A stretch of 64,000 bases of DNA from Mobula hypostoma (taxonomy: Eukaryota), in contig NC_086097.1 of NCBI RefSeq assembly GCF_963921235.1, positions 95,730,001 through 95,794,000 of the forward strand. Reading direction: 5' to 3'. The notes below the pieces were generated by a model. That model ran no database searches, was not told the origin of the DNA, and was given only the letters and a program-made list of their open reading frames with translations. Within the stretch, counting starts at the first letter, position 1; every line of letters begins with the position of its first letter. Below, piece after piece: positions 34,102-58,394 of the stretch. The position numbers and the translations under genes are program-made.

Positions 34102-34694
34102 GCAGACACGAGGAAATCTGCAGATGCTAGAAGTTCAAGCAACACACACAAAAACTGCTGGTGAACGCAGCAGGCCAGGCAGCATCTCTAGGAAGAGGTA
34201 CAGTCGACGTTTCAGGCCGAGACCCTTCGTCAGGACTAACTGAAGGAAGAGCTAGTAAGAGATTTGAAAGTGGGAGGGGTTGGGGGAGGGGGAGATCCAA
34301 AATGATAGGAGAAGACAGGAGGGGGAGGGATGGAGCCAAGAGCTGGAGAAGGGAGAGGATCAAGGGACAGGAAGCCTGGGGAGAAAGAGAAGGGGGGAGG
34401 GGAGCCCAGAGGTGGAGAGCAGGCAAGGAGTTATAGTGAGAGAGACGGAGGGAGGAAAAAGAGAGAGAGATAAAAAAGGGGGGGAATAAAAAATATATTA
34501 AAGAAATAAATAAGGGATGGGATGTGAAGGGGAGGAGGGGGATTAACGGAAGTTAGAGCCTCCCACTTTCAAATCTCTTACTATCTTTTCTTTCAGTTAG
34601 TCCTGACGAAGGGTCCCAGCCTGAAACATCGACTGTACCTCCTCCTATAGATGCTGCCCGGCCTGCTGCGTTCACCAGCATTTTTTGTGTGTGT
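34102..34694. mobile_element. Inverted pair of Penelope pseudo-LTRs (fold-back insertion) with 14-bp TSD
   Basis: Left arm is minus-oriented and right arm plus-oriented. Flanks are TACTTCATGAAAGT (34088-34101) and TACTTCATAAAAGT (34695-34708). Confidence 0.85.
34202..34237 (-). ncRNA. Minimal type I hammerhead ribozyme motif (Penelope-associated), intact core
   Basis: Minus strand reads AGUC-CUGACGA-AGGGUCUCGGCCU-GAAAC-GUC-GACU: helix I AGUC/GACU, CUGANGA and GAAA boxes, helix II AGG/CCU, palindromic ACGU and a GUC cleavage triplet. Confidence 0.8.
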
Positions 34695-35763
34695 TACTTC
34701 ATAAAAGTAACTGGCCCAAAGTATGAAAACAGTAAGATGTTGTTATATAAAGCAGAAAATTTGAATGGCTTAAGATGGTGCTGAGCTGTGACCTCCATTA
34801 GGAGGTTTTTTGTGGAATTTTTGGGATCCGATTATTATATAAATGGTGAAAGATTGTGGCATGCTGTTCTGCAAAGAGACTGGGGAGTACTTGTGCATGA
34901 ATCACAAAGATGGTTGGCAGGTACAACAGGTTATCAGGAGGAGATTAAATGTTGGTCTTCATGCTAGAGGAATTGAATTTTGAAGTTTTGTTTCAACTGT
35001 ACACGGTACTGGTGAGGCTACACCTGGTGTACTGAGTACTATTCTGGTCTCTTTACTTGTGGAAAAATACACCGACTTTGGAGGCGGTGCAAAGGAGGTT
35101 CACCAGACTGATCGTTGCGATGAAGGGATTAGCTTACGAGAAGAGATTGGAATTCAGAGGAATAAAGGGATAAAAAATATCTATAAAATTATGAAAGGAA
35201 CAGAATAATAAAATTATAAGACAGAAGCAGGCAAGTTGTTTCCATTAGTAGAGACTAGAACTAGGAGATAGAGACTCAAGATTCAGGACTAGATTTAGGA
35301 TGCAGATGGAACTGCTTTTCCCAGAGAATAATGAAACTGTGTAATTCTCTGCAGCAGTAGAGGTTACCTCATTAAATATTTAATATTACGTGGAGAGGCC
35401 AGATAAATGGACCTATGTACATGGCCAGATATGCCATGACATCACTGAATGTCAGTGCAGGCTCAATGGGCCAGGTGGCCTAGTCCTCCTTAAGTTCTTA
35501 TGAGTGTCACATGCATATCCTCTTACAAATTGCTTTCAGAAACAATATGAGACAGGAACTTTGACCTATTCCCTCTCCCTTGTCCAGGGACTAGTTAATT
35601 TACCCGTGGCCGGTGTGTTGGACGGTGAGTCAATGCCCGGTGAACGGTATAGTTCAATGGTGGCTCAGAGCGGCAGACAAACTGCTGGCATCTAATACAA
35701 ACGACTGAAATGTCTACATAGAAACATGACAGATGATAAATGCTTGCTGAAGCTGACTCTTAC

Positions 35764-35827
35764 CTCACGTTCCAGATAGGACAAAAGCAACTCTGTTTCA
35801 TTTAACAACGTAACGCTGCACTTTCCC
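35764..35827 (-). CDS. MTA1: MTA1-like coding exon (64 bp, BAH domain)
   Basis: (R)GKCSVTLLNETELLLSYLERE. Acceptor TTCCAG|, donor GAG|GTAAGA. Phase matches the exons on both sides. Confidence 0.93.
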
Positions 35828-36089
35828 CTGGAAGGGAATTGAAAAAGGTGTCAGTAAGAGTCTCGGACAGGTACACAGAACTCCTCCCTTCCACTGTTGG
35901 AAGATCTTGGGTTTGAGGCGTACTCAAAAACTGATGACATAGCTCAGGTCTGAATGCGGTGCCGTACTCCTGGAGGTATCCTGTTCAGGTGAGACATCAC
36001 ACCTCCTGTCCTGTGTGGAAGAATTTGAAGAAAATAAGGGAGTTTTGAAAGTGGTTGATTAATCAGTGGAGGGGTGGGGGACAGTGATT

Positions 36090-37565
36090 AGGGGCCATCA
36101 GCATGGCTTTGTGTGTGGGGAATTCAAGTATTACAAACTTAATTAATATTTGATGTGACCAAGAAGAATTTGAGGTCATGGTCAATATGGACTTTAATAA
36201 GGCCTTTAAGCTGCCCTGGAATATTACACTGCATGGAATTTAGGAGGGGCTGGCTAATTGGAATCACAACTAACTTGATGGTAGGAAGTAAACGATGACG
36301 GTGGAAAGTCATTTCGCAGAGTGGGAGCCTGTGACAAGTGATGTGCCTCAGGGGTCAGTGCTGGGTCCCTTGTTTGTCACTTATAATAACAATCTGGATA
36401 AGATTGGCACGGTAAGTTTGCAAATGACATGAAAACAGGTGCTGTAGTAGACGGTGAAAATGATCAAAAATAGTTGATAAACTAAGTAAGTGGGTTGAAG
36501 AATAGCAAATGGGGTTTTAATTTGGAAATGTGCGAGGTGTTGTAATTTGGAAAGTCAATCCAGGCAGGTCTTTCACAGTGAATGAACGGACTCTGGGGAG
36601 CGTTATTGAACAGAGGGAGCTTGGAGTTCAAGTACAAAGTTCCCTGAAATTGGAGTCACCAGCAGGCAGACTGGTGAAGAAATCTTGTGACACATGAGTG
36701 TAATCAGTCAGGATACTACATATACAAGTTGGGAGGTCATGGTACAGTTGTACAAGGCATTGCTGAGACTGTGTTCTTGAGTATTGTGTTCAGTTTCGGT
36801 TGCCCTACTATAGGAAAAATCTACAGGGATGCGGCCAGACTAAGTGACAGGGAGAGATTGGACAAGCTAGGACTTCATTCCATGGAGTGTAGGAGATGGA
36901 GAAGTATTCATATTGAGGTGTATAAAATCATGCGGGGCATTGATAGGGTGGATACACTTGATATATTGATAGGGTGGATACACATAGTCTCATTCATTTA
37001 TTTAGAGATACAGTGTGGATCAGGCCATTCCAGCCCAGCGCCGGATTGCTCACCAACACACCTTTTTAACCCTAGACTAATGACAGGACAACTCACAATG
37101 TCCAATTAACCTATTGACAAATACATCTTTGGACTGTGGGAGTTAAATGGAGCACCTGGAGGAAACCCACGTGGTCACAGGAAGAACGTACATATTCCAG
37201 GGTTGGAGAATTAAACTTGAGGCCACAGATTTAGACCATAAGATATGGGAGCAGAATTTTGTCCCATCGAAACTGCTCTGCCATTTGATCGTGACTTACT
37301 TTATTTAAGGCTAGAGGAAATATTTAATAGGTACTTGAGAGAAACATTTTTTAAACCCTTAGTGTAGAATGCATGTGGAATAAGAAGCCAAAGGAAGTGG
37401 TTGAAGCAGGAGTATTAACTGTTTAAAAGATATTTGGGCAGGTACATGGATGAGAAAGGTTTAGAAGGTTATGGGCCGAATGCCGGGACTAGCTTGGAAT
37501 GACATCTTGGTCGGCACGGTCTGGTCAAGGCCAAAGGGTCTGTTCCATGCTCTATGACTCTATGT
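36090..37565 (+). mobile_element. Decayed CR1 LINE 3' half with an inserted V-SINE (about 36995-37190, minus)
   Basis: VPQGSVLGP-like sequence at about 36345, EVYKIMRGIDRVD, and a (CTATGACT)n-type tail at about 37550. Confidence 0.75.
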
Positions 37566-38280
37566 TCCTCCAGACTCCTGGATAATCTTCAACTCTCAAT
37601 CAACATCCTAAAGTAAGATCACAGATAGCTGAAAATCTGAAATACACAGCAGGTCTGTCAGCATCTGAAAAGAAAAACAGTTAACATTTCAGGTCAAAGA
37701 GCCATCACCAAAGCATGTAAATGTTAGAAATTAAATGCATTATATGCTGAAAAGAAGGAAGGGGTGGAGAAGTAAGGGGACATTTGTAATATAGTGAAGG
37801 ACATTGGTGATGGTGGTGCTGACTGAGAGGGCGGGGAAGGCTTGTTAATTGACCCTCCTCCAGTCAAGAGAAGGATACTAATACAAACAGATGGCGGAGT
37901 GAAAACTTGCTAGGACTACCAGAAACAAAACACTGTGGTTGCTGTAATATGAATTGACATAGGAATTCTGGGAATATCCAGAGGGTCAGGCAGCATCTGG
38001 TAAAGAGGAAAATCTGAGTTATACTCACAAGTTGATGACATTACATCAGAACTAGCCAGTCTTGATGTTCTCATTGACATGCATCATGAGGAATAACTAA
38101 GATAGGATTATGCCTCATCTGTGGGATCGCTTACCCAATTTAGTCATTGGGACTCGATTCAGCTGGGAAAACACTTTACTCTATATGAGTTCAGTGACTA
38201 CTATTGGCTAATTATGGTCACATGTACCAAGATATAGTGAAAAGTGTCTTTTTTTATTTTCATGCCATCCAGACAGACCA

Positions 38281-38532
38281 TACATACACACATATATACA
38301 CACATACACACACACATATATACACACATACATACACACATACACACACACATATACACATATATACACACATACACACATACATACACACATATATACA
38401 CACATACATACACACATACACACACACATATATACACACATACATACATACACACACACACACATACACACATATATACACACATACACACATATATACA
38501 CACATACACACATACATACACACACACATACA
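38281..38532. repeat. Compound (CA/TA)n microsatellite, about 250 bp
   Basis: Continuous alternation of A with C or T (TACATACACACATATATACA...). Confidence 0.97.
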
Positions 38533-39314
38533 CTGAAAAAGGAAAAAGAATGCAAAGTTTAGTGGGGACGCAAGACATTGCAGACACTGGAAATCTGCAG
38601 CAAGGAAGCTGGAGGAGTTCAGAAGGTCCGGCTGCATCTTTGGAGGGAAATTAACAGTTGACGTATCAGGCTGAGCTGTTGATCAGGACTAGAAAGGGGA
38701 AAGATGGCCAATATAAAAAGGGAGGGGGGAGGGGGCAGGGAGGGAAAGGTGAGGGGAGGCAGTGTAAGAGCTGGCAGACGATAAGTGGATCTATGTTAGG
38801 GGGTGATCGGCAGGTGAGGAAAAGGTGGGAGTAGTGGCAGGCTGGGCCCTAAATGGGTGGAGGAGAAAAGAGCTAAATCTAATTGGAGAGGACAGTGGGC
38901 CATGGGGTAAAGGGAAGGAGGTAGGGAGAGGAACCAATGGGAGGAATAGGTGGGTGGTAAACAGATAAAGAAGGTGGGGAGAAGAGGAAAGGGATGGGGT
39001 GACTGCGGCCAGTGGGATTTTGCCAATTCTCTGCATAGATGCTGCCTGTCCTGCTGAGTGCCTCCAGCTTTTTGTGCAGAAAATAGTAAAGCAGTTACAG
39101 AGGGTGCAATGTAGGTAGACAAATAGCCAAGGTCATCGTCATTTCTGAGTTCCTTTTCCTGCTTTGACATAGCAATTTTGGAACTATGGAATGAATTGTT
39201 GCACCATTATAGACACCTTTCAAACATCAATACATTGCTGAGAGCCCTGAGTCACTGATAGGTTGGGCAAAATGAGTTTGACAGATTTCCTCCTGAAAGA
39301 TTTTGTGAACCAAA

Positions 39315-40285
39315 GTTCTTAGTAAATTTATTATCAAGGTATGTATGTTACCACAAACAACCCTGAAATTCATTTTCTTCATGACGTTCACAACAGAACA
39401 AAGAAATACAATTGAATCAATGAAAAGCTACAAAGTCTAACAAACAACCAATGTGCAAAAGAAGACAAACTGAAAACAAACTAATAAATAATCATAGTAA
39501 ATCAATAATACTGAGAACATGAGATGCAGAATCCTTGAAAGTGGGTCCAAAGGTTGTGGAATTTATTTAGTGTTGGGGTGAGTGAAGTTATCCATACTGG
39601 TTCAGAAGCTTGATTGTTGGAGGGTAATAACTGCTCCTGAACCTGGTGGTGTGAAACCCAAGGCTCCTGTACCTCCTTCCCGATGGCAGCAGTAAGAAGA
39701 CAGCATGGCCTAGGTGGTGGAGGTCCTCGATGATTAATGCTGCTTTCTCATGGTAGCACTCCAGTGCTCAATGGTGGGAAGGGTCTTTCCTGTGAAGGAC
39801 TGGGCTGTATCCAACACTTTTTGTAGGCTTTCTGTTCTGGGGCATTGGTATTTTCACACCAGGTCATGATACAACCAGTCAGGATACTCTCCACTGTGCA
39901 TCTATAGAAATTTGTCAAGGTCTTAGATGACTTAGTGAATCTTTACGAATTCCTACAAAAGTAAAGACACTGCCATGTCTTCTTTGTAATGGCAGTTAAA
40001 GGCTGGTCTTAGGACAGATCCACTGATACGATAAGGCCAAGGAATTTAAAGTTACTAACCCTCTCCACCTCCAAACCCCCTTTCTTCCTCCTGCAGTCAA
40101 TAATCAGCTGTTCGGTTTCACTGATGTTCATTGAGGGGTGATTGTTGCGGCACCATTCAACCAGATTTTCAATCTCCCTCTTATACGCTGAATCGTCAGC
40201 AAACTAAAATATGGCACTGGAGCTGTACTTAGCCTCACCATCATAAGAATAAAGCAAGTCGAGCAGGGGGATAAACACACAGCCA
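39315..40285 (-). mobile_element. Rex/Babar- or L2-like LINE 3' fragment
   Basis: Reverse homolog of the family 3' region seen at 25760-26080 and 29200-29550 (FYRCTVESILTGCI-like at about 39870-39910). Confidence 0.7.
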
Positions 40286-40563
40286 GATAAGTTTTTTGTA
40301 ATCACATGGTCGTGTTGTTCATTATTACCAAGATCCTGGCACAGCACACAGCTGCTCAGCATCAGAAGACTTCTGGGGTTAAAATAAAATCAAAAGAACT
40401 ACAGATGCTGGAAATGCAAAAGGAAAATGGGAAACACAGGAGATTCTCAAGTCAGGATTAATGTTTCAAATCAATGGCTTGTCACCAAACTGAAACTTAT
40501 CATTTTTTTCCCTCCTGCCTGACGTAATGTATCTCTAACATTTTCTATTCACAGGGCTGAGAC

Positions 40564-43500
40564 TTACAGACAGCACTCCTGCTTGCCCCCTCCCCGGTTA
40601 CAGAGAGCCCTCCCCCTTGCCCTCTCCCTGGTTACAGACAGCACTCCCCCTTGCCCCCTCCCCGGTTACAGAGAGCCCTGCTTGCCCCCTCCCCGGTTAC
40701 AGAGAGCCCTCCCGCTTGTCCTCTCCCCGGTTACAGAGAGCCCTCCCGCTTGTCCTCTCCCTGGTTACAGACAGCACTCCCGCTTGCCCCCTCCCCGGTT
40801 ACAGAGAGCCCTCCCGCTTGTCCTCTCCCCGGTTACAGAGAGCCCTCCCGCTTGCCCCCTCCCCGGTTACAGAGAGCCCTCCCCCTTGCCCCCCCCCCGG
40901 TTACAGAGAGCACTCCCCCTTGCCCCCTCCCCAGTTACAGAGAGCCCTCCTTGCCCCCTCCCCGGTTACAGAGAGCCCTCCCGCTTGCCCCCTCCCCGGT
41001 TACAGAGAGCCCTGCTTGCCCCCTCCCCGGTTACAGAGAGCCCTCCCGCTTGCCCCCGTCCGGGTTACAGAGAGCCCTCCCGCTTGTCCTCTCCCCGGTT
41101 ACAGAGAGCCCTCCCGCTTGTCCTCTCCCCGGTTACAGAGAGCCCGCCCCCTTGCCCCCTCCCCAGTTACAGAGAGCCCTGCTTGCCCTCACCCCGGTTA
41201 CAGAGAGCCCTCCCGCTTGCCCTCCCCGGTTACAGAGAGCCCTCCCGCTTGCCCTCTCCCGGTTACAGAGAGCCCTCCCCCTTGCCCCCTCCCCAGTTAC
41301 AGAGAGCCCTCCCGCTTGCCCCCTCCCCAGTTACAGAGAGCCCTCCCGCTTGTCCTCTCCCCGGTTACAGAGAGCCCTCCCGCTTGTCCTCTCCCCGGTT
41401 ACAGAGAGCCCTCCCGCTTGTCCTCTCCCCGGTTACAGAGAGCCCTCCCGCTTGTCCTCTCCCCGGTTACAGAGAGCCCTCCCGATTGCCCCCTCCCCGG
41501 TTACAGAGAGCACTCCCCCTTGCCCCCTCCCCGGTTACAGAGAGCCCTGCTTGCCCCCTCCCCGGTTACAGAGAGCCCTCCCGCTTGTCCTCTCCCCGGT
41601 TACAGAGAGCCCTCCCCCTTGCCCTCTCCCCGGTTACAGAGAGCCCTCCCGCTTGTCCTCTCCCCGGTTACAGAGAGCCCTCCCGCTTGTCCTCTCCCCG
41701 GTTACAGAGAGCCCTCCCGATTGCCCCCTCCCCGGTTACAGAGAGCACTCCCCCTTGCCCCCTCCCCGGTTACAGAGAGCCCTGCTTGCCCCCTCCCCGG
41801 TTACAGAGAGCCCTCCCGCTTGTCCTCTCCCCGGTTACAGAGAGCCCTCCCGCTTGTCCTCTCCCTGGTTACAGACAGCACTCCCGCTTGCCCCCTCCCC
41901 GGTTACAGAGAGCCCTCCCGCTTGTCCTCTCCCCGGTTACAGAGAGCCCTCCCGCTTGCCCCCTCCCCGGTTACAGAGAGCACTCCCCCTTGCCCCCTCC
42001 CCAGTTACAGAGAGCCCTCCTTGCCCCCTCCCCGGTTACAGAGAGCCCTCCCGCTTGTCCTCTCCCCGGTTACAGAGAGCCCTCCCTCTTGCCCCCTCCC
42101 TGGTTACAGAGAGCCCTCTTGCATGCCCCCTCCCCAGTTACAGAGAGCCCTCCCACTTGCCCTCTCCGGGTTACAGATAGCCCTCCGGATTGCCCCCTCC
42201 CCGGTTACAGAGAGCCCTCCCGCTTACCCTCTCCCCGGTTACAGACAGCCCTCCCGCTTACCCTCTCCCTGGTTACAGACAGCCCTCTCGCTTGCCCCCT
42301 CCCCAGTTACAGAGAGCCCTGCTTGCCCCGTCCCCGGTTACAGAGAGCCCTCCCGCTTGTCCTCTCCCCGGTTACAGAGAGCCCTCCCGCTTGCCCCCTC
42401 CCCGGTTACAGACAGCCCGCCCCCTTGCCCCCTCCCCGGTTACAGAGAGCCCCGCTTGCCCTCCCCGGTTACAGAGACCCCTCCCGATTGCCCCCTCCCC
42501 GGTTACAGAGAGCCCTCCCGATTGCCCCGTCCCCAGTTACAAAGAGCCCTGCTTGCCCTCTCCCCGGTTACAGAGAGCCCTGCTTGCCCCCTCCCCGGTT
42601 ACAGAGAGCCCTCCTGTTGGCCCTCTCCCCGGTTATAGAGAGCCCTCCCGCTTGCCTTCTCCCGGTTACAGAGAGCCCTCCCGCTTGTCCCCTCCCTGGT
42701 TACAGAGAACCCTCCCGCTTGTCCCCTCCCCGGTCACAGAGAGCCCTCCCGCTTGCCCTCTGCCCGGTTATAGAGAGCCCTCCCCCTTGCCACCTCCCCG
42801 GTTACAGAGAGCCCTGCTTGCCCCCTCCCCAGTTACAGAGAGCCCTCCCGCTTGCCCTCCCCGGATACAGAGAGCCCTCCCGCTTGCCCCCTCCCCGGTT
42901 ACAGAGAGCCCTCCCCCTTGCCCTCTCCCCGGTCACAGAGAGCCCTCCCGCTTGCCCTCTCCCAGTAACAGAGAGCCCTCCCGCTTGCCCTCTCCCCGGT
43001 TACAGAGAGCCCTCCCCATTGCCCCATCCCCGGTTACAGAGAGCCCTCCCGCTTGCCCCCTCCCCGGTTACAGAGAGCCCTGCTTGCCCCCTCCCCGGTT
43101 ACAGAGAGCCCTCCCGCTTGCCCCCTCCCCGGTTACAGAGAGCCCTCCCGCTTGCCCCATCCCCGGTTACAGAGAGCCCTCCCGCTTGCCCCCTCCCTGG
43201 TTACAGAGAGCCCTGCTTGCCCCCTCCCCGGTTATAGAGAGCCCTCCCGCTTGTCCTCTCCCCGGTTACAGAGAGCCCTCCCGCTTTCCCCCTCCCCGGT
43301 TACAGAGAGCCCTCCCCCTTGCCCCCTCCCCGGTTACAGAGAGCCCTGCTTGCCCCCTCCCCGGTTACAGAGAGCCCTCCCACTTGCCCCCTCCCCAGTT
43401 ACAGATAGCCCTCCCCCTTGCCCCTTCCCCGGTTACAGAGAGCCCTGCTTGCCCCCTCCCCGGTTACAGAGAGCCCTCCCGCTTGTCCTCTCCCCGGTTA

Positions 43501-46500
43501 CAGAAAGCCCTCCCGCTTGCCCCCTCCTCGGTTACAGAGAGCCCTCCCGCTTGTCCTCTCCCCGGTTACAGAGAGCCCTGCTTGCCCCCTCCCCAGTTAC
43601 AGAGAGCCCTCCTGCTTGCCCCCGTCCGGGTTACAGAGAGCCCTCCCGCTTGCCCTCTCCCCGGTTACAGAGAGCCCTCCCGCTTGCCCCCTCCCCGGTT
43701 ACAGAGAGCCCTCCCGCTTGCCCCCTCCCCGGTTACAGAGAGCCCTCCCGCTTGCCCTATGCCCGGTTACAGAGAGCCCTCCCGCTTGCCCCCTCCCCGG
43801 TTACCGAGAGCCCCGCGTGGCCCCCCCCCGGTGACAGAGAGCCCCCCCGCTTGCCCCCGTCCGGGTTACAGAGAGCCCTCCCGCTTGTCCTCTCCCCGGT
43901 TACAGAGAGCCCTCCCGCTTGTCCTCTCCCCGGTTACAGAGAGCCCGCCCCCTTGCCCCCTCCCCAGTTACAGAGAGCCCTGCTTGCCCTCACCCCGGTT
44001 ACAGAGAGCCCTCCCGCTTGCCCTCCCCAGTTACAGAGAGCCCTCCCGCTTGCCCTCTCCCGGTTACAGAGAGCCCTCCCCCTTGCCCCCTCCCCGGTTA
44101 CAGAGAGCCCTCCCGCTTGCCCCCTCCCCAGTTACAGAGAGCCCTCCCGCTTGTCCTCTCCCCGGTTACAGAGAGCCCTCCCGCTTGTCCTCTCCCCGGT
44201 TACAGAGAGCCCTCCCGCTTGTCCTCTCCCCGGTTACAGAGAGCCCTCCCGCTTGTCCTCTCCCCGGTTACAGAGAGCCCTCCCGATTGCCCCCTCCCCG
44301 GTTACAGAGAGCACTCCCCCTTGCCCCCTCCCCGGTTACAGAGAGCCCTGCTTGCCCCCTCCCCGGTTACAGAGAGCCCTCCCGCTTGTCCTCTCCCCGG
44401 TTACAGAGAGCCCTCCCGCTTGTCCTCTCCCTGGTTACGACAGCACTCCCGCTTGCCCCCTCCCCGGTTACAGAGAGCCCTCCCGCTTGTCCTCTCCCCG
44501 GTTACAGAGAGCCCTCCCGCTTGCCCCCTCCCCGGTTACAGAGAGCACTCCCCCTTGCCCCCTCCCCAGTTACAGAGAGCCCTCCTTGCCCCCTCCCCGG
44601 TTACAGAGAGCCCTCCCGCTTGTCCTCTCCCCGGTTACAGAGAGCCCTCCCTCTTGCCCCCTCCCTGGTTACAGAGAGCCCTCTCGCAGGCCCCCTCCCC
44701 AGTTACAGAGAGCCCTCCCACTTGCCCTCTCCGGGTTACAGATAGCCCTCCGGATTGCCCCCTCCCCGGTTACAGAGAGCCCTCCCGCTTACCCTCTCCC
44801 CGGTTACAGACAGCCCTCCCGCTTACCCTCTCCCTGGTTACAGACAGCCCTCTCGCTTGCCCCCTCCCCAGTTACAGAGAGCCCTGCTTGCCCCGTCCCC
44901 GGTTACAGAGAGCCCTCCCGCTTGTCCTCTCCCCGGTTACAGAGAGCCCTCCCGCTTGCCCCCTCCCCGGTTACAGACAGCCCGCCCCCTTGCCCCCTCC
45001 CCGGTTACAGAGAGCCCCGCTTGCCCTCCCCGGTTACAGAGACCCCTCCCGATTGCCCCCTCCCCGGTTACAGAGAGCCCTCCCGATTGCCCCGTCCCCA
45101 GTTACAAAGAGCCCTGCTTGCCCTCTCCCCGGTTACAGAGAGCCCTGCTTGCCCCCTCCCCGGTTACAGAGAGCCCTCCTGTTTGCCCTCTCCCCGGTTA
45201 TAGAGAGCCCTCCCGCTTGCCTTCTCCCGGTTACAGAGAGCCCTCCCGCTTGTCCTCTCCCTGGTTACAGAGAGCCCTCCCGCTTGTCCCCTCCCCGGTC
45301 ACAGAGAGCCCTCCCGCTTGCCCTCTGCCCGGTTATAGAGAGCCCTCCCCTTGCCACCTCCCCGGTTACAGAGAGCCCTGCTTGCCCCCTCCCCAGTTAC
45401 AGAGAGCCCTCCCGCTTGCCCTCCCCGGATACAGAGAGCCCTCCCGCTTGCCCCCTCCCCGGTTACAGAGAGCCCTCCCCCTTGCCCTCTCCCCGGTCAC
45501 AGAGAGCCCTCCCGCTTGCCCTCTCCCAGTAACAGAGAGCCCTCCCGCTTGCCCTCTCCCCGGTTACAGAGAGCCCTCCCCATTGCCCCCTCCCCGGTTA
45601 CAGAGAGCCCTCCCGCTTGCCCCCTCCCCGGTTACAGAGAGCCCTCCCGCTTGCCCCATCCCCGGTTACAGAGAGCCCTCCCGCTTGCCCCCTCCCCGGT
45701 TACAGAGAGCCCTCCCGCTTGCCCCCTCCCCGGTTACAGAGAGCCCTCCCGCTTGCCCCATCCCCGGTTACAGAGAGCCCTCCCGCTTGCCCCCCGCTTG
45801 CCCCCTCCCCGGTTACAGAGAGCCCTGCTTGCCCCCTCCCCGGTTATAGAGAGCCCTCCCGCTTGTCCTCTCCCCGGTTACAGAGAGCCCTCCCGCTTTC
45901 CCCCTCCCCGGTTACAGAGAGCCCTCCCCCTTGCCCCCTCCCCGGTTACAGAGAGCCCTGCTTGCCCCCTCCCCGGTTACAGAGAGCCCTCCCACTTGCC
46001 CCCTCCCCAGTTACAGATAGCCCTCCCCCTTGCCCCTTCCCCGGTTACAGAGAGCCCTCCCGCTTGTCCTCTCCCCGGTTACAGAAAGCCCTCCCGCTTG
46101 CCCCCTCCTCGGTTACAGAGAGCCCTCCCGCTTGTCCTCTCCCCGGTTACAGAGAGCCCTGCTTGCCCCCTCCCCAGTTACAGAGAGCCCTCCTGCTTGC
46201 CCCCGTCCGGGTTACAGAGAGCCCTCCCGCTTGCCCTCTCCCCGGTTACAGAGAGCCCTCCCGCTTTCCCCCTCCCCGGTTACAGAGAGCCCTCCCCCTT
46301 GCCCCCTCCCCGGTTACAGAGAGCCCTGCTTGCCCCCTCCCCGGTTACAGAGAGCCCTCCCTCTTGCCCCCTCCCCAGTTACAGATAGCCCTCCCCCTTG
46401 CCCCTTCCCCGGTTACAGAGAGCCCTGCTTGCCCCCTCCCCGGTTACAGAGAGCCCTCCCGCTTGTCCTCTCCCCGGTTACAGAAAGCCCTCCCGCTTGC

Positions 46501-47150
46501 CCCCTCCTCGGTTACAGAGAGCCCTCCCGCTTGTCCTCTCCCCGGTTACAGAGAGCCCTGCTTGCCCCCTCCCCAGTTACAGAGAGCCCTCCTGCTTGCC
46601 CCCGTCCGGGTTACAGAGAGCCCTCCCGCTTGCCCTCTCCCCGGTTACAGAGAGCCCTCCCGCTTGCCCCCTCCCCGGTTACAGAGAGCCCTCCCGCTTG
46701 CCCCCTCCCCGGTTACAGAGAGCCCTCCCGCTTGCCCTCTGCCCGGTTACAGAGAGCCCTCCCGCTTGCCCCCTCCCCGGTTACAGAGAGCCCTGCTTGC
46801 CCCCTCCCCGGTTACAGAGAGCCCTCCCGCTTGCCCCCGTCCGGGTTACAGAGAGCCCTCCCGCTTGTCCTCTCCCCGGTTACAGAGAGCCCTCCCGCTT
46901 GTCCTCTCCCCGGTTACAGAAAGCCCTCCCCCTTGCCCCCTCCCCGGTTACAGAGAGCCCTGCTTGCCCCCGTCCCGGTTACAGAGAGCCCTCCCACTTG
47001 CCCTCTCCCGTTACAGAGAGCCCTCCCGCTTGCCCCCTCCCCGGTTACAGAGAGCCCTCCAGATTGCCCCGTCCCCGGTTACAGAGAGCCCTCCCGCTTG
47101 CCCTCTCCCCGGTTACAGACAGCTCTCCCGTTTGCCCCCTCCCCGGTTAC
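40564..47150. repeat. Intronic minisatellite, 34-bp consensus GGTTACAGAGAGCCCTCCCGCTTGCCCCCTCCCC with a 31-bp variant, roughly 195 copies
   Basis: Directly visible tandem array of about 6.6 kb; copy number estimated from length divided by unit size. It abuts the exon at 47151. Confidence 0.98.
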
Positions 47151-47277
47151 CTGATGTGGGTTGCTGGTAGGGACTCCAGCTGCCGTGACAGGAAGAGCTC
47201 GCGGTGTTTCAGCTGGTGCCGCTCGTTCTCAGAAAGTTCCTGCAGCTCTCCATTTTCCATCTCCTCTTCTACTTCCT
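47151..47277 (-). CDS. MTA1: MTA1-like NuRD subunit, internal coding exon (127 bp, BAH domain)
   Basis: Translates to EVEEEMENGELQELSENERHQLKHRELFLSRQLESLPATHI(R), the MTA-family BAH motif. Acceptor ...CCGCACAG|, donor CAG|GTAACC. EEEMEN and QLES are MTA1-type residues. Family is certain, paralog assignment less so. Confidence 0.93.
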
Positions 47278-48372
47278 CTGTGCGGAGATCAAAAACATGG
47301 GGTCAACACAATCAGCTTCTGCACTTCCAAAATGTTACCCAGTTCTCAAATCAGCTCGCATGTTGCCCTACCAAAAATTAACAAAACAGAAGTGCAGAGG
47401 TGTCAGCCATGATTTTGTTACCAGCCAACTGGTCAACTTCTGTGTGAAGACTTGCTGCTGTGAGTGAGTCTAAATTCACACAAAACCAGACATGAACCAC
47501 TAGTTCTGTGTCCCTGCCTGTGAATGTCAGCTGGGTACAATTTCATCCCACGTTTTACTTGAATCACCAGAATGGAGGAGGTCTCTCGGGCTATCTGGTG
47601 TCTGCCGTCTCCCGAGGAGCAATCCCAACAGTTCTGTTCACTCCTTTCTAATTTTCCTGCACCCCTGCATCTTATTGTCTCCCACATGCCCATCATTTTC
47701 CCCCATTGCACTCTTTTGCCACTTATCCACACTGAGGGAGAATTTGCAACACATGCATCAGCCAACAAAATTCCAAACCTGTATACTGCATTCAGACATC
47801 ATAAATATGATTTTTTACACTGCAGACATAAAACCCAGATTGGGCGATTACTTTGTGGGATCTCTGCATTCATCCACAGGACTGACCCTGAGCTTCTAGT
47901 TGCCTGTTGATTTTGTTTTTCATTTCACTGCCACTGGGATCTGCCTGCCTGCTGCCTTCCAGAATGATAGATTGAGAGCCCACACAGGCTTGAGCAACAA
48001 CACCACATCTTCTGGAGACACAAGAGACTGCACATGCTGGAAATTTGGACCAAGACATAGGAGCTGTAGGAACTCAGGATTGATGAAGGGTCTTGATCCA
48101 AAACATTAATAGTTCATTTCCTTGCATAGATGCTGCCTCACCCACTGAGTTCCTCTAGCTCCTTTATGTGTAACCTTCTGTCTTTTGGACTATTTCTCCA
48201 AGTTTCAGTAACTTGCTCTTTTCACTCTGTCTGTATCAGCACTGGCCATTTTTGAAAATTGTCGATCTGTGACTTTTATGCAGTTTTCCTCTCCATCAGT
48301 ATAGTATTATGTGCTGGATGGGTCCCACAACCCTGCCATCTGCAACGCATAAACAGACAAAAGCATAATCTG

Positions 48373-48609
48373 AGCAACACACATCAAAGTTGCTGGTGAA
48401 CGCAGCAGGCCAGGCAGCATCTGTAAGAAGAGGTACAGTCGACGTTTCAGGCCGAGACCCTTCGTCAGGACTAACGAAGGGTCCTGACGAAGGGTCTCGG
48501 CCTGAAACGCCGACTGCACCTCTTCCTACAGATGCTGCCTGGCCTGCTGCGTTCACCAGCAACTTTGATGTGTGTTGCTTGAATTTCCAGCATCTGCAGA
48601 CTTCCTGTT
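48373..48609. mobile_element. 237-bp palindromic non-coding Penelope-derived element with two opposed hammerhead motifs and a perfect 14-bp TSD
   Basis: Arms of about 100 bp (48373-48471 and 48481-48579) are near-perfect inverted repeats. AAAAGCATAATCTG occurs at 48359-48372 and 48610-48623. Confidence 0.92.
48437..48472 (-). ncRNA. Minimal type I hammerhead ribozyme motif, intact core
   Basis: Same 36-nt sequence as 34202-34237 on the minus (host-transcribed) strand, with CUGACGA, GAAAC and GUC. Confidence 0.8.
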
Positions 48610-50684
48610 AAAAGCATAATCTGCTTCTAATTGCACCAATAATCTATTTTATCTCACCTCATCATTAATGTTTTCCCTGTTCTGTCCATCTCTTCCCCCA
48701 TCCTCTCTGCTACTGAAAACTAACCCTCCTTCTAATTCACCCTTCTCTTTCCACAGACATTGCCTAACCAGCTGAACAATTACAGTTGCTTTTATTTATT
48801 TCAGATTTCCATTGTCTGCAGGGTTCTCTTGCTGCATTTTCAATTAATGTTTTGGGACAAGGAAAGCTAACTTGACCTTCCCCTCTCCTCACCAATCTGC
48901 CTGTTGCAGGCTTAACTTTACAGGAGTAACAGCCAGCCAGTCCATGTGGATTCAAGGGCCAACTTCTATACTCACCATTATCCCATGTGGCAATACCACC
49001 CGCTTAGTAGTAAGATTCTAACTGAGATTGGAAAGACACTGTCACTGTGACCTACCACGTCAAGGGCTTTAAACCAGGCCACAGAGGAGTACAAACTAAG
49101 ATCACAAAGGCATCAGAATTGGTAACAGGGCATGTGCTCTGTTTTCAAAATCAAGGCTGGTCTTATAACTCCACTCCTTTCTCCTTTTCCTTCATGCTCT
49201 TGAATAAGGAATTCAACCCACTCTTGAATAAATTCAACAAGTTATTGTCCGTAACTTCAGTAGAAAAAATTCCAAAGCTTAAAAATTCTGTGAATTTTGT
49301 ACTTCAAACCAAATTGGACCACTAAGTCTTGACCCCAAGCTCTCAACTTTCCATTCACAGAAAAGAGTCTTTCAGGTCTACCTGGTTACACTAACAAAGA
49401 ATTGTACACATTTCGGTGAACTTACTCCTCATTGCTTTAAACTCTACAAATTACCTGTTCTTCTCAATCTCCCCCATGAAACAACTGTGTCGTTTTAAGT
49501 ATTCCTTTCTGTAAACAAGACCAGACCTATCCATGGTGGCACAGCTGTGCTCTACTTGCAACAAGACTTCCCAGGAAAAAAAACAGTAAATTGTCACTAC
49601 ATTGTCTTCAAAGCAAGAATACCCTTGTCATAATGAGACCAAAAACACTAGGCCATTTTACCAAAGCCCCTTGCAACCATAAGATGACTACCTTAATCCT
49701 ATAACTTCAATCTCCTTATTAACTTCAATCTCCTTATTATCTCCTTCAATCTCCATTTGTTTAATTGTACCTGCATATTAACTTTAAGATTCATATGTAA
49801 GAATCCAAATCTTTGACTATAAACATCTCAGAGTGCTCAAAGTTTTTCAGAAATTCTGCATTTGTATTCTTCCTTTTAAAATAGGTAACCTCGCGCCTCC
49901 ACATGTCATACACCATTTCCCACTTTTTTCCTCATTTAACCAACCTGTGTACCTTTCTCCCAACTCCACCCTTGCTCCTCCCTCACCTGGCTCAACCTGC
50001 TTGTCAGTCTTCACCTCTCCTTGGTCCCCCATTTAGCTCTGGTACCCACCCATCTCACCACTTCCCCTCTCCTCTTTATACTGGACATCTCCTCAATCCT
50101 GATGTAGGGTTTTCACCTGAAATGTTAACAACAGCTCTCCCAACTACAGATGCTGCTTGACCCACTGAGTTCTTCCAAAAGATTCTATGTTTCAGCTTCC
50201 AGCATTTACAGCCTCTTGTGTGTTGTGTTTTTTAATACCTTAGCAGCAGTTCAACTTGCCACCCGTTACCATATCCCACATTTATCATTTGTAAACCTGA
50301 AAACATTATTCTTGGTTCTCTCTGTTAATTTAGTGAAATAGACTGTAAACAATCAAAACCCACATTTTTAATTTTGTGGCAACCCTATAAGCTCCATTCT
50401 GATTCCTAAGTACTTATTTATTCCTAAATATTTATTCAGATTTCTGGCCAGGCTAATATATTAACCACAATCCCGTGAACATTAATCATGTTAATAACTT
50501 CATGTGTAGCACTTTAATTATATTTTCTGAATATGCAAAACTACTTTGCAATAGACCATAAGAATTAGGCCATTCAGCCCATTGATTCTGCTCCACTTTT
50601 TCATCATGGTTGATCCATTTGCCCTCTTAACCCCATTCTACAAGACCATAAGACGTACAGACAGAATTAGGCCATTCAGCCAGT

Positions 50685-52245
50685 TGTGCAGCAAAGGAAC
50701 AGGCTCTTAGATCCATTACATCTGTGCTGACAATCATGCCCATCAACACTAATCCCTCTATGCCTTGCTCGTTCATATACCTATCCATATGCCTTTTAAC
50801 TGTTGTTCCTGTCCTGCCTCCACCACCTCCTCTGGCAGAAGATTCCAGAAACCAGCCTTCTGTGTAGGAAAAAAACTTACCCCTCAGATCTCCTTTAAAT
50901 GTCCTCCCTCTTACCTTAAACCTCTGCGTTTAGACATCCCTACCAGAGAAAACAGGCACCGGCTAGCAACCCGATCTATTCCTCTCATAATTTTGTACAC
51001 TTCTATCATGTCACATATCTGCACCCTTCATTCCAGCAAAAACAAATCTAGCCGATCCAGTTTTACTGAATTAAAGAAGGAAATCAGGAGGGCTAAAAGG
51101 AGACATGAGGTTGCTCTGGCACATAAGCTGAAGGAGAGTCTCAAGGGCTTCTACTGATATATTAAAAGCAAAAGGAGAGAAGGGACAAAAATAGTCCACC
51201 TAAGGATCAGCATGATCATCTATGCGTGAGGTTGAAAGAGATGGGAGAGATCTTTAATGGATTTTTTTGCATGTGTATTTACTCAGGAGACGGACACAGA
51301 GTCTATCGAACAGAGGCAAGACAGCATTGAGGTCGTGGACCATATACAGATTACAGAAGAGGAGTTTGAGCCAAACTTTGTTGAGTAGGTTCCTAGGGCC
51401 TGACAAGGACCTTGTGGGAGACAAGTGTAGAAATTGCTGGTGGACTGGAGGACAGCCAATATTGCTCAGAGTTGTTCAAGAAAGGCTCTAAGAATAAGCC
51501 AGGTAATTATAGGCCAGTGAGTCTGATATCCGTAGTGGGTAAATTACTGTAAGTATTTTAAGGGACCGGATATATAAGTACTAAGATAGACAGGACCATG
51601 ATTTTCGCTTTGTGAGTGGTAGGTAGGTCACGTCTAACCAATCTGACAGAGTTTTTTGAGGAGGTTACCATGAAAGTGGATGAAGGCAGGGCAGTGGATG
51701 TTGCCTACATGGACATTAGCAAGGTCTTTGACAAAATCCTGCAAATGCGGCTGGTCAAGAAGGTTCAGTCGTTTGCCGTTCAGGATGTGATGGCAAATTG
51801 GATTAAACTGTGGTAGTAGATGCTTGCCCTCTGAGTAGAGGCCTGTGACTAGTGGTGTGTCGCAGGGATCAGTGGTGGGTTTGTTGTTGTTTGTCATCTG
51901 TATTAACAATCTGGATGATAATGTAGTAAACAGGATCAGCAAATTTGCGGATGACACCGGGAGTGGGGGTGCAGTGGACATTGAGGAAGACTATCAAAGC
52001 TTGCAGCAGGATCTGGACCATCGGGAAAAATAGGCTGAAAAGTGGCAGATAGAACTTAATGCAGACAAGTGTGAGGTGTTGCAGTTTGGGAGGAATAACC
52101 AGGATAGTACTTATATAGTGAAGGGTAGGACAGTGAGGAAAGTGGAAGAACAGAGGGATCTGGCAGTACAGATATATAATTCCTTGAAAGGGGCTGGTAG
52201 ATGGGTTTTAAAGAGATCCTTTGACACATGGGCCTTCATAAAACA
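50685..52245. mobile_element. CR1 fragments in opposite orientations (3' end minus at about 50685-51060; ORF2 plus at about 51065-52245)
   Basis: ORF 50765..51157 switches from antisense CR1 to sense KKEIRRAKRRHE. Downstream are AVDVAYMDISKVFDK and KFADDT. Confidence 0.72.
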
Positions 52246-54524
52246 ATGTTTCTAGTCCCAGTGCAGGGTTTTGAACAGAAATGTCAACAATCCCTTCTAC
52301 ATTTATAACCACCCCCCTCTCCATAGATGTTGCTACACCTGCTGAGTTCCTCCAACAGATTGTTGCTCAAGATTACTCTACATCTCGGATTGTCTTCAAC
52401 CTGACTTTATTTTCATCCCTAAGTTCCCTTCTTCCCTTCTAATTATTGGTTTAAAGCCCCATTGGGTTAATCAGTTAACCTGTCTGGTTCATGGGGCTCA
52501 TTAAATGACTGGTCCAGGAATTTGAGTTCCTGTCCTCTGCATCTAAATCCATTTGTCTCCTTCCATCTTGGGCTCAGCTGGAAACTAGGAGGTTCTGTAT
52601 TTTAATCAATTTTCCAGCTATTCAAACAATCTTAGTCTAGCATCAGTCCTTAGTTTCAGAAGATGCTATCTATTCCATCACCTTAAACCATTGATATATA
52701 GCATAAAAAGAAGCAGCCCCAACACTAACCTCTGCAGAACACCACTAGTCACTGGCAGCCAACTAGAAAAACGATCCTTTTTATTCCCACTTGCTATGGG
52801 TTCCATGGACCTGAGTGTTTTCAGCTTTTTCTGCCTCATATTTCCAAGTACCTGCAATTTTTCTTTAATTTTCATCCATCCTAGCTCTGTGCTTACAGTT
52901 ACAGTGTGGCTCACAATTGCCCGAGTCAACGATGAGCTAGATTGTCACAGTGGGATTCCTCCCATACCCAGAAGCCTTGCAGTTTGGGATGGTAATCGGC
53001 CTCTTGTACGTACGTAGGTGAGTGGTAGAATCTTGCAGAGCAGCAGGGAACGTGTGGATGGTGAAATATTTTTAGTGTAAATGGGTACCTGATGGTTAGC
53101 AGGGAGTCAGTGGGCCGAAGGGCCTGTCTCCATCTGTTTGACTGTAGGCATTGAAACCTGAGAGCCATGTTAATTCCACGTGTGACTGCTATTTATCATG
53201 AACACACAGAGCAGGAGCGTGAGAAGTAAGCTATTCGGCCTCTCTTTCCTCTTCCACCGTTCAATAAGATCATGACTGATCTTCTACCTCAGCACCACTT
53301 TTCAGCACTAATCTTAAAACTCGTTGATCCCTTAAATATGCAAAAATCTTCCATCTCAAATATACTGAATGACTGAGCTTTCACTGACCCCTTGCACAGA
53401 GAATTCCAAAGACTTACTACTCTCTGAGTGGAGGGATTCCTGTTTATCCATGTCCTGACTGGCTGACCGTTTATATGACACTATTTCTCCTGAGTCTGAG
53501 TATTCCAAACAAGATAAACATCCTTCCTGTATCGAGACTGCCAGGCCCCAAACAAAATTTTGTATGGTTCAAGTTCATCTCTCATTCTTAAACCCAAGAG
53601 TGCATTGGCTGAATCGAAAAGCAAAATAAAAACTGAAGATGCCAACCATCAGAAAACAGAAAATTCTGTTCATGAAAACGGTTTGCAACATGAAATATTA
53701 ATCCCGTTACTGTTGCCATCGATCCTGACTAACCTGATGAGTGTTTCCAGCAATTTATTTTTGTTTTTATTTGAGAGTACAGGACTCATCTGCTTAATCA
53801 AGAGGCCCAGAAGTTGGGGTTCAAATCCCACTCCAGAGCCAAATCCAGGCTGAGCATCAGTGTACGATATAATACGATGTGCTAGATACTGGATGAGATG
53901 TCTGCCTCTCAGGTGGTGTTTACAAAAAGGGATTCCTGGTTTCCCGGTCAATATTTATCTCTCAATTAATCGTATTAAAATATATTCTCACTGCTGTTTG
54001 TGAGAGCCTAAAGTGTCGAAGTTGGTTTACGCATTTCTTTCAATATAAAAGCAACCATACAAATGCAAAGTTCTCTGCTATATAGTGCTTTCTACAACAT
54101 AGTTAATTCATACTTAATGTGACTATCTCAATACATACTGAAGTATTGCACCCCCTCCACACATGCACTGGCAATTTGCCATCTGATTCAGATGGGGTGC
54201 TGCCATGAGCCTGCGACTATTGCCAGGTGCTGCTTCTGGGACAGCCACTAACTTTGCACCAGCCATCAGCTACACATTTACATTAATCCTGTTTCTGTTT
54301 TAAATTCTTCGCCCAATCCCATCAGTTCCCTCCGCCCCGCAGAATCTACTCTCCTAAACACTAGGGGCAACTTACAACAGCCAATTCACCTCCCAGTCCA
54401 TGTCTTTGGGATATAGGAGGAAAGCTATCTAACCACCAGGGAGAAAGTGGAAATTCCACACGAACAACACCCTTGGTCAGGATTGAACCTGTGCCTCAGG
54501 TATCAGGAGGCAGAAGCTCTACTT

Positions 54525-55436
54525 CCCCACTCTTTCGGCTTTCCGCAGGGATCGCTCCCTACACGACTCCCTTGTCCATTCGTCCCCCCCCAACCCTTCC
54601 CACCGATCTCCCTCCTGGCACTTATCCCTATAAGCAGAACAAGTGCTACACCTGCCCTTACACTTCCTCCCTCACCACCATTCAGGGCCCCAGACAGTCC
54701 TTCCAGGTGAGGCAACACTTCACCTGTGAGTCGGCTGGGGTGATATACTGCGTTCGGTGCTCCCAATGTGGCCTTTTATATATTGGCGAGACCCGACACA
54801 GACTGGGAGATTGTTTTGCTGAACACCTACGCTCTGTCTGCCAGAGAAAGCAGGATCTCCCAGTGGCCACACATTTTAATTCCACATCCCATTCCTATTC
54901 CGACATGTCTATCCACGGCCTCCTCTACTGTCAAGGTGAAGCCACACTCAGGTTGGAGGAACAACACCTTATATTCCATCTGGGTAGCCTCCAACCTGAT
55001 GGCGTGAACATTGATTTCTCTAACTTCCGTTAATGCCCCTCCTCCCCTTTTTACCCCATCCCTTATTTATTTATTATTCCCTCTCTCGCCACCCTTTTTT
55101 CTCCTCTCTGTCCCTCTCACAATCACTCCTTGCCTGTTCTCCATCTTCCTCTGGGCTCCCCCTTTCTTTCTCCCTAGGCCTCCCATCCCATGATCCTCCC
55201 CCTTCTCCAGCTCCGTATCCCTTTTGCCGATCAACTTTCCAGCTCTTAGCTTCATCCCTCCCCTCTCCTGTCTTCTCCTATCATTTCGGATCTCCCCCTC
55301 CCCCTCTCAAATCCCTTACTATCTCTTCTTTCAGTTAGTTCCGACGAAGGGTCTCGGCCTGAAACGTCGACTGTACTTCTTCCTATAAGATGCTGCCTGG
55401 CCTGCTGCATTCCACTAGCATTTTGTGTGTGTTGCT
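54525..55436 (+). mobile_element. 5'-truncated Penelope-like element (GIY-YIG domain + pseudo-LTR) with a perfect 13-bp TSD, inserted in a V-SINE
   Basis: ORF 54473..55033 reads FTCESAGVIYCVRCSQCGLLYIGETRHRL...EHLRSV. AGAAGCTCTACTT occurs at 54512-54524 and 55437-55449. Hammerhead-like motif at about 55337-55372 has CCGACGA. Confidence 0.92.
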
Positions 55437-55689
55437 AGAAGCTCTACTTGTTGTGTCACTATGCAATCAAATTAAAAGGACAGCAAGGTAAAGCTGCAAT
55501 GCAGGGCGATGTACGTGCATTCTAAGCAGCATATCCAAAGCAAAATAGAGTGCCAAGCGATCTCACAATCAACGTACGAGATCAGAGTTCTGTAATTCCG
55601 TCAGTCATGAATGGCAGTGGTCTTCTAAGGAGCGAATGGGGGAGGAGTGTCCAAGAAGATCTTCATCTTCCATGATGACAGGGCCCAGC

Positions 55690-57560
55690 ACTTGAGTGCC
55701 AAAGTCAAGGATGACACATTAACAGTAATATTTGGGCAAAAGTGCAAAGAGAATTACCTATCCTTGATTCCTCCTGAAATCCAGCCAATTTGATTCATGC
55801 CACGTTAATTTAAGAAACATCCAAGTGGGCCTGCTACAGCAAAGGCTGTGCAACCAGACAAAGTCCTAGCTGTAGTTCGGAAGACCCATGCTCCAGAACT
55901 AGCCTTACTTGTAGCCATGTTATTTGAACATTATAAACACAGTTACAACACTGGCATTTATCTGACAAGTGTGGGAAACTGTTCAGGTGGATGCCATCAC
56001 AAAAAAAGCCAAATCCAACTAATTATGAGACAATCACCGTCAATCAGCAGGAAAGCAGGTGAAGATTTTGTCATCCACCTTACCCACCAACATCCTGTTC
56101 AAACCTTCAGTTTGGCTCTTGCCAGGATTACTCAGCTCCAAATGTGGACCAGAGAGCTGAACTCTAGAGACAAGACAAGGTGAGTCTGACTGCCATTGGT
56201 CTCAAGGCAGTGTTTGATCAAACATGGCATCAAGGAGCCCTGGTAAACCTGAAGTCAGTGGCCACTGAGGAGGAAATATTCAAATGGTTAAGGGTCCTGC
56301 CTTACACGTAGAAAGATGGATATGGTTGCTAGTAGTCATCCCAGGTCTAGGACACTCATGACAGTGTTGTAAGTTCCCACAATGACCTTCCTTCCATGGT
56401 AAAGTCAGAAATGAAGACGGCCACTGCCTGATGTTCAATGCCATTCATAAATCTTCTGACAACTGAAGCAGCCATGCCTGCATGGAACAAAACCCAAGCA
56501 TAACTAACAAGTGCAGGTAACACCAAAGTGCCAGCCAATTACCAGCTCCAACAAGAAAGAACTCATCACCTTCTCTTAGTGCATTACCAGAAATTACTGT
56601 CTGTCACGCCTGTGTTTAGGGCAGCAATGATCTCTGGGGGTGTCCAGGGCTTCCTTCATCATGTCAGTAGCTTCTGTCACTACTGACAGCCAGCAAGTCT
56701 TGGGTGGAGGCTCAGGAATACTGTTGCACACAGATGTAGAAGGATTCTTCCATTGCTGCTTCCCTAACTGTTTTGTTTTATCAGTCAGGGTTGTTAGCCA
56801 TGGGCTGAACCTGGAGGACTGGTGGACTGGACTCTGCCCTTTGACCTGTGTGGCATGGGTGACCCCAGCAAGAGCCAAAGCATAAAGACCTGACTCCAGC
56901 CAACATCGCCATCTGGGTCACTGAGGCACACAGGCCTCCAAACCACGACGAGGTTGTGGTCCTCTGGGGAGGACCTTCACCAAATCACCCATCCTTGATA
57001 TCCTGGGTTTCACCACTGCCTGGAAATTCAACTGTGGACCAAACACATTAATACTATGGGTACAAGAGCAGGTCCAGTTCTGAGTCTTCTGTGGCAGGTC
57101 ACTCACTCATGATATCCCAAGACTTTCCATGCATCAACTCGGGAATAGAATATCTCCATATACCAGGAAGAGAACAGCTGGGGAATAAAAGAACACTGAA
57201 GAATCCCAACACATTCAAGTGCAAGGTAGACATATGAATGTAGAGAAATGGAGGAATATGGATCCAACTTGATTGGTATTCCCTCCATTAACTGACCGCT
57301 GTGGCTGCAGTATCCCCCATCTACAAAATACAATGCATTTACTCGCTCAGGCTACCTTGACAGTACCACCGAAACCCATCACCTCTAGCACCAGGATAAG
57401 GACAGCAAAAGCAAGAGACCACCACAAACTACAAGCTCCCTCCACTCATTTGGAAATATATTACTATTTCTTCATCACCACTGGTTTACATCTTTGCCCA
57501 ATAACATTCTGGAAGAGGATAAGACTGATTTCAATAAGGCAATTTGCCAACACCTTCTCA
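55690..57560 (+). mobile_element. Old decayed CR1/L2-group LINE remnant
   Basis: PDKVLAVVRKTHAPELA (ORF 55848) and an LKAVFDQTWHQG-like RT remnant at about 56200-56240. Confidence 0.6.
56590..56972 (-). mobile_element. Short non-coding insert resembling a bipartite (5'UTR + 3' end) non-autonomous RTE element
   Basis: Minus strand starts CACAACCTCGTCGTGG...GTGCCTCAGTGACCC...GGGTCACCCATGCCACACAGGTC, recalled as RTE/Expander-type 5' sequence. It interrupts the surrounding LINE. Confidence 0.5.
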
Positions 57561-57586
57561 AGAGCATTGACTGCTGGCTTTGATAG

Positions 57587-58284
57587 TGTAAGGGGTTTCT
57601 ATTTTTTATGTCACTGCATAGTCTAATTAAAATGGCTTCTTTGTTATGTTATAATTGAAAGGGCTTCTTTGTTATGTTAAATGCTGAGAAAGTCCTCCCG
57701 CTAGCAGTTTGTTGAATCACATTACTGATAAGAAGATGTTATGAACCAATTGAGATAGTTGTTATGTTTTTGGTGTATCTGTAAGATATTGTATGCGCGG
57801 GGTTTTGGGGCAGAAGGCGGGAGAGAGAGACAGAGGATGGACCAGGTGCCATGAGTCCGCTAACGGGGTCGCACCCTGAGCGGGGCGTTCAGCAAGGAGA
57901 GGAGATGGAGACGGACTGGTGTGGAGCGTCTGGTCGACCACTGTTGTTGGTCCCAGGTGGCCGGTCGAGGCGGTCTGAGGGGTCGCAGGATGAAGAAGAA
58001 GGGTCCTGAGCTCCAACTGTTTGTGCACGAAGAGATTGAACTTTGATAAGTGCGGCGCCTTTTATTTTCCTTTTATATTTTATTCTCTATTAATTATATA
58101 GTTCCAGTAATATCTATAAACTGTAAATCATTTAATTGTATCTGGTGTAGTGTCTGTTATTTGGACGGGGTGGGGTACATCACACAGCATCCACACAAAC
58201 GAATTACCCAGTTTGCCAGGGCCAAGGGCTGTTTCCCTAGACGACAGCGAGTTGAGCGACCCTAAGGGTGGCCAGGGGGCTACA
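57587..58284. mobile_element. Solo LTR (698 bp) of an LTR retrotransposon or endogenous retrovirus
   Basis: TGTA...TACA termini with a 4-bp TSD ATAG (57583-57586 and 58285-58288). CpG-rich core, no credible ORF. Confidence 0.75.
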
Positions 58285-58394
58285 ATAGTGACATACAGAT
58301 CTCAAAACTTAAGTTAAAAAAAATGTTTGTAGATAGCTATACATGTGACAGTGAGGAAGAAAGTCATAGGTGACCGGATGACACAAATGGACCG

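Follow-up and report, generated by a model that had tools for sequence, protein, structure and literature searches.

We found that a 6.6-kb minisatellite in an intron of MTA1 begins exactly at the first intronic base of a coding exon, and that the donor at its edge is the one joined in spliced RNA. The evidence below makes it likely that this is a lineage-restricted, tolerated, young, G4-motif-rich intronic minisatellite abutting a constitutive donor. The locus offers a clean, dated minisatellite birth, with a single copy of the unit in two relatives and an array (~200 copies in the host) in two sister species, and in this dated birth the edge unit keeps the old sequence. It also indicates that an array may begin exactly at a donor without making competing donors. 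Since the copies lack the exon-side bases and only the real donor appeared in the RNA checked, we regard the array as an ordinary repeat expansion, of a type also found in human genes, which would matter more only if its length changed MTA1 splicing or dose.

The array and its host intron

MTA1 is a scaffold of the NuRD complex. The exon next to the array is a 127-nt coding exon of the BAH-domain region (47151..47277, minus strand), which we take to be equivalent, in numbering, to human exon 5. We assigned it to MTA1 from its 42-aa translation, whose best match was an MTA1 cluster of Pristis pectinata (98% identical across the 42-aa query), with shark MTA1 next; by this protein similarity the host is a batoid. 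The translation also matched human MTA1 residues 82-122 in PDB 7ao8, and an RNA contig covered the exon with 0 differences. The window (the whole 64-kb stretch of DNA analysed) holds six MTA1 exons, all on the minus strand, and an MTA1 exon upstream of the 127-nt exon was not found in 47278-64000. The RNA contig joins an exon ending in DKHA straight to the 127-nt exon, the same arrangement as in ray and shark proteins, and one primate protein (P0058) differs in the stretch before the 127-nt exon. The next exon, the acceptor partner of the real donor, is 64 nt long (35764..35827, minus strand), and the array makes up 58% of the 11,323-nt intron between the two.

The minisatellite occupies 40568..47150 on the minus strand and was parsed into 197 units of ~34 nt over 6,583 nt; TRF called 40564-47150 with a period of 34, 197.1 copies and 87% matches. 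A period of 34 over 6.6 kb is that of a tandem minisatellite, with units of 10-100 bp arranged head-to-tail over 0.5 to several kb. An earlier note on this DNA had described a ~6.6-kb minisatellite starting exactly at donor +1 of an MTA exon, and both the TRF call and our reading of the junction agree: on the minus strand, exon and array meet at CACATCAG/GTAACCGGGG, with unit 1 beginning at 47150. The far end likewise reads TCT/GTAAGT as had been stated (40567-40562, minus strand; 6/9 donor matches, -5.4 kcal/mol), and its GTAA forms a 4-nt terminal direct repeat of the array. GTAACC had been put at about 195 repetitions, a slight overcount, as it opens 158/197 units counting the real donor (GTAACT opens 23 and other hexamers 16); the accompanying remark that TCT replaces CAG before the copies was correct. 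Array GC is 67%, and among the units 147 are 34 nt long, 32 are 31 nt long, and 73 distinct variants occur. A 20-nt unit motif, allowing up to 3 mismatches, matched the window 180 times, every time within the array, versus 0.01 matches expected from shuffles; beyond the array, the unit was not found elsewhere in the 64-kb window (best match 11-15 nt).

Within the array, we found a block duplication of ~2565-2600 bp comprising 77 units (41069..46249, minus strand), with an identity of 0.936 versus 0.864-0.882 in 5 shuffles of unit order, and 80-mer diagonals at 2564-2581, 2801 and 2980 bp. Blocks 2565 bp apart have long identical unit strings in common, and their few differences resemble local consensus noise (e.g. 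the unit near 43835), as they would if the assembly had written the 2.6-kb block twice or placed two haplotypes in tandem, making the 6.6-kb length partly an artefact. This is improbable, however, because 42 mismatches and 15 gap openings separate the two blocks, the offsets of 2801, 2980, 1104 and 399 bp are those of repeated nested duplication, and relative B, one of the related organisms compared below, independently has many unit copies.

Other elements lie in the MTA1 introns. The array's own intron contains a CA/CATA microsatellite (38279-38533; TRF), and another MTA1 intron has a 71-bp tandem repeat of 2.4 copies, away from splice sites (16858-17029; TRF). A short dispersed repeat forms two inverted pairs in MTA1 introns, of which one is a near-perfect palindrome (48373-48606; 93% over 207 nt) and the other an inverted repeat with a spacer (34137-34699; 92% over 141 nt); from their arrangement, it is possible that these pairs yield dsRNA. 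An Rfam search over 35000-50000 gave 0 matches at the gathering score, and an RNA fold of the junction region 46980-47200, using a model without G4, showed nothing special (z = -0.53).

The unit in related species and the birth of the array

We compared the locus with DNA contigs of relatives B, C and D (3 of 8 other organisms with data); these are short-read contigs, from which array lengths are unreadable. Relative B, at 21 differences over 778 nt (about 97% identical to the host), has the array: summed depth was 166 over unit 1 versus 8 on the flank, a joint went back 34 nt, and there were loose ends of array units with the derived ending GGGAGGGCTCTCT. For relative C (39 differences and 10 gap letters) and relative D (63 and 20, respectively), a single contig each comes in from the upstream intron, crosses the exon and enters unit 1, aligning as far as 47121 in C and 47114 in D; neither showed extra depth or a 34-nt joint at unit 1. 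Differences common to C and D are absent from B, and on this ground we grouped B with the host. The simplest reading of these contigs is an ancestor with one unit, followed by amplification in the lineage of the host and B; it is conceivable that C and D carry a strongly diverged array, as their contigs end with 90 and 47 unaligned letters past unit 1, respectively. The earlier note had proposed that the opening ~34 nt of the intron, once present as one copy, were amplified into the array, which one copy in C and D and an array in B bear out; the single-copy state that it looked for in the orthologous intron of related species was indeed seen in both of the more distant relatives compared. Unit 1 (47117..47150, minus strand), matched by one contig each in C and D, is of this ancestral, single-copy type; three of its positions (20, 27 and 31) depart from the array consensus.

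The same contigs yielded three further observations. The donor +6 base (47145) is T, the consensus base, in relatives B and D and C in the host and relative C, a pattern that disagrees with the species grouping; as GTAACT also opens 23 array units, the base may have been converted by the array, or the change may have recurred. Second contigs in relatives B and C match an exon part (47145-47224) with 12-13 differences per 80 nt and, judged by this divergence, probably represent a paralogous MTA exon. At 47833-47888, a 40-41-nt stretch is in tandem in B, C and D, as seen from joints that go back (summed depth ~410 in D), and TRF found no repeat there in the window; a second small intronic minisatellite thus varies between species.

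If whole units are removed on paper, the sequence left is CAG/GTAAGT, a consensus donor, as if a dispersed satellite or foreign 34-mer had been inserted into an older donor with duplication of a GTAA target, the insertion supplying the present donor. We consider this origin extremely improbable. Relatives C and D already carry unit 1 right after the exon as a single copy, which largely refutes it there, and we saw no copy of the unit outside the array in the window; contigs with additional units were likewise absent from C, D and the RNA run (X17). Insertion of the array itself into an ancestral CAG/GTAAGT donor was rejected, since unit 1 stands directly after the exon in C and D. As an older event, insertion of the unit would imply CAG/GTAAGTCTCAG without the unit in deeper outgroups.

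Amplification from a single copy, in contrast to insertion, would have begun with slippage or microhomology between the GTAA of the donor and another GTA(A) lying 34 nt further into the intron. The cited passage of PMC2820488 (citing Haber and Louis) sets out a model in which minisatellites arise between short direct repeats. A duplication between two GTAA words would account both for the array edge lying exactly at +1 and for the TCT-GTAAGT at the far end. We infer the ancestral second GTAA downstream of unit 1, where the match to relative D reaches only as far as GTA and that to relative C falls 4 nt short of a full unit. An A-to-G change at position 27 may then have given one variant a fourth G-run, and with it a G-quadruplex motif inside one unit, and this variant may have become the consensus, after which G4-prone transcribed DNA could have grown via slippage, conversion and unequal exchange, with the 2.6-kb block duplication enlarging the array late. 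The array would have been tolerated and spliced out with the intron, we propose, because TCT/GTAACC goes unrecognised as a donor and the exon keeps its CAG/GTAA with G-runs near.

The donor in use and the repeat copies as donors

The RNA evidence comes from one host run (X17) of five RNA-type runs, read as contigs on 47110-48009, a form of data that drops rare transcripts. Its contigs show exon-exon joins, which identifies X17 as spliced RNA. One 2121-nt contig (depth 57) joins the upstream exon, the 127-nt exon and the exon starting at 35827; depth over 47110-47139 was 0, and none of the 5 X17 contigs entered the array, the other four being short weak matches upstream, in the intron. This contig establishes 47151/47150 as the working donor, the authentic 5' splice site being CAG/GTAACC (47145..47153, minus strand). 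It confirms the earlier note's view that unit 1 opens with the real donor, supplied by the array edge; alternative donors or retention, which had also been considered, gave no sign in the contigs of this one run, where the normal junction alone was seen. Read-through past the junction meets an in-frame TAA as its first codon. Stop-containing transcripts are degraded by NMD, so the products of any downstream donor would probably be degraded.

The consensus donor is MAG/GTRAGT, and we scored sites by our own match count and by duplex energy against the complement of this consensus, not by MaxEntScan. The repeat stops short of the exon (over its final 34 nt, 6/34 positions agree with unit 2), which is why the copies read TCT/GTAACC with the exonic CAG absent. 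By these scores the real donor reached 7/9 and -8.0 kcal/mol versus 4/9 and -1.3 kcal/mol for a typical copy, and 1711 of 2234 ordinary GT sites in non-array MTA1 intron paired better than the typical copy. Donor-like sites, defined as those with at least 6/9 matches plus -1G or +5G, numbered 1.7 per kb in the array versus 8.4-10.1 per kb in three ordinary intron stretches. Within the array, the only donor-like sites are four variants reading AGG/GTAAGC (44826, 44792, 42261 and 42227, minus strand; 7/9, -8.9 kcal/mol) and two reading GGG/GTGAGG (43993 and 41192, minus strand; 6/9, -9.8 kcal/mol), which outpair the real donor and lie at least 2.3 kb downstream, at about background density. Pyrimidine tracts (at least 9 pyrimidines in the 14 nt upstream) were found at 0/49 YAGs of the array, leaving no pseudo-exon acceptor by this measure.

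These scores speak against the earlier suggestion that the repeats form a field of decoy donors: scoring real against repeat donors placed the copies at background level, far below the real donor, and the array is poorer in donor-like sites than normal intron; such a field is not supported. For the repeats to act as functional decoys, they would have to attract U1 and either rival the real donor or serve as its backup. GT opens 190/196 downstream units, GTAACC is repeated in 157, the six variant sites pair as well as the real donor or better, and in F7, according to the cited passage, pseudo-sites become usable once the first site is mutated (PMC1557585). Yet the unit lacks exonic positions -3 to -1, a -1G or +5G occurs in just 1/190 of the GT-starting downstream units, donor-like density falls under the intronic background, the six good sites are far from the exon with no usable acceptor in the array, and X17 contigs never enter it. 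Functional decoys are thus highly improbable, and a tolerated array beside a single working donor remains our preferred reading.

G-runs, array length and known systems

The array contains 673 G-runs and 88 canonical G4 motifs, on the sense strand only, whereas the remaining 57.4 kb of the window has 12 G4 motifs. The canonical motif occurs in 88/197 units, including the consensus with its four G-runs, and is absent from the commonest variant (35 copies) and from unit 1, which has three G-runs; G4Hunter scores were 1.21 for unit 1 and 1.19 for the array. G4-dependent minisatellite instability is known for CEB1 and CEB25 from the cited passages of PMC2673046, PMC3486850 and PMC5491262. Growth of the MTA1 array driven by G4 is plausible only, given that the motif is missing from the commonest unit and that unit 1 and the array are nearly equal in G4Hunter score.

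Within the first 100 intronic nt after the real donor, we counted 10 G-runs, versus 0-2 after five other MTA1 donors in the window, and as this donor lacks +5G, a local G-run enhancer role is possible. In the passages cited, enrichment of G4s and G-runs was measured over the 100 nt next to splice sites; it is strong in mammals and birds, with depletion in zebrafish and frog (PMC9065059) and low levels in lamprey and fish (PMC3606033), and sharks and rays are outside the scope of these passages. Given the 100-nt range of these measurements and the weak or absent signal in fish, units after the third would be unlikely to add enhancer activity.

By geometry, the closest known system is human ABCA7 intron 18, where, in the passages cited, a VNTR with a 25-bp unit lies at the exon-18 donor, spans 300 bp to over 10 kb, and exon-19 skipping tracks its length (PMC6660495, PMC13747324); a 2026 study reports that length and splicing could not be correlated in its RNA cohort (PMC13747324). 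An effect of this kind at MTA1 would have a length-variable array whose sense G-runs or G4s bind hnRNP H/F or slow the polymerase and so tune MTA1 dose, by shifting the share of retention, cryptic donors and skipping of the 64-nt exon, all of them frame-breaking. The ABCA7 precedent, a real donor at 7/9 without +5G, the 10 G-runs nearby and the 673 overall are consistent with it. We nevertheless hold it unlikely, as the RNA run showed only the normal junction, the cited passages describe depletion of G4s and G-runs at splice sites in zebrafish and low enrichment in lamprey and fish, and relatives C and D keep the same exon with a single unit. A bolder version, slightly less likely still, is that in one ray lineage the array serves as a heritable dial for the dose of MTA1, with allele length setting the amount of stop-containing forms or, conversely, the G-run field propping up a donor without +5G. 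If true, it would mean a G-run splicing element working in cartilaginous fish, with dated single-copy ancestors for comparison.

Splicing-associated tandem repeats are common in humans, numbering 9537 in the cited passage of PMC10078293, and descriptions of shark and ray genomes include simple tandem repeats (cited passage of bioRxiv 10.1101/2025.06.08.657570). A literature search, with most subscription journals outside it, found no paper on the MTA1 intron array. CEB1 and CEB25, as described in the passages cited, resemble it in their GC-rich units, quadruplex motifs and many interspersed variants; G4 folding and instability were demonstrated there, whereas for the MTA1 array the likeness is in motif counts alone. 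Intronic G-run and G4 enhancers of weak 5' splice sites, bound by hnRNP F/H, are similar in that G-runs on the non-template strand directly follow a donor without +5G. They differ in that their enrichment, measured within 100 nt in the cited passages (PMC9065059, PMC3606033), peaks in mammals and birds, with low or depleted levels in fish.

Minisatellites at exon-intron junctions form a second group, for which the cited passage of PMC1557585 lists human F7 IVS7 (37 bp x 5-9), CBS IVS13, 6-16, LAMIN B2 and PDGF. As there, the MTA1 repeat begins at the exon-intron junction and repeats intronic donor bases, and, as described for F7, LAMIN B2 and PDGF, the most upstream site is the one normally used (here, in the contigs of one RNA run). 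In the systems of that passage, however, the first monomer holds exon bases, the exact donor is copied and the pseudo-sites are functional, whereas the MTA1 unit starts at +1 and drops the CAG. The MTA1 monomer does not span the boundary, with the exon end matching at 6/34 positions and TCT preceding the copies, and by our scores its pseudo-sites are predicted to be much weaker than the real donor (4/9, -1.3 versus 7/9, -8.0 kcal/mol). Copy number differs as well, at 5-26 in that group versus 197 here.

ABCA7, in the passages cited, shares with the MTA1 array a multi-kb minisatellite (>200 copies in long alleles) right beside a donor, unit variants and internal cryptic donors, and the MTA1 array, like it, lies immediately next to its donor. 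The core described for ABCA7 is cytosine-rich, whereas the MTA1 array is G-rich and G4-like on the sense strand; and for ABCA7 an effect on splicing and expression was measured and polymorphism shown, whereas no such effect was seen for the MTA1 array in the one RNA run.
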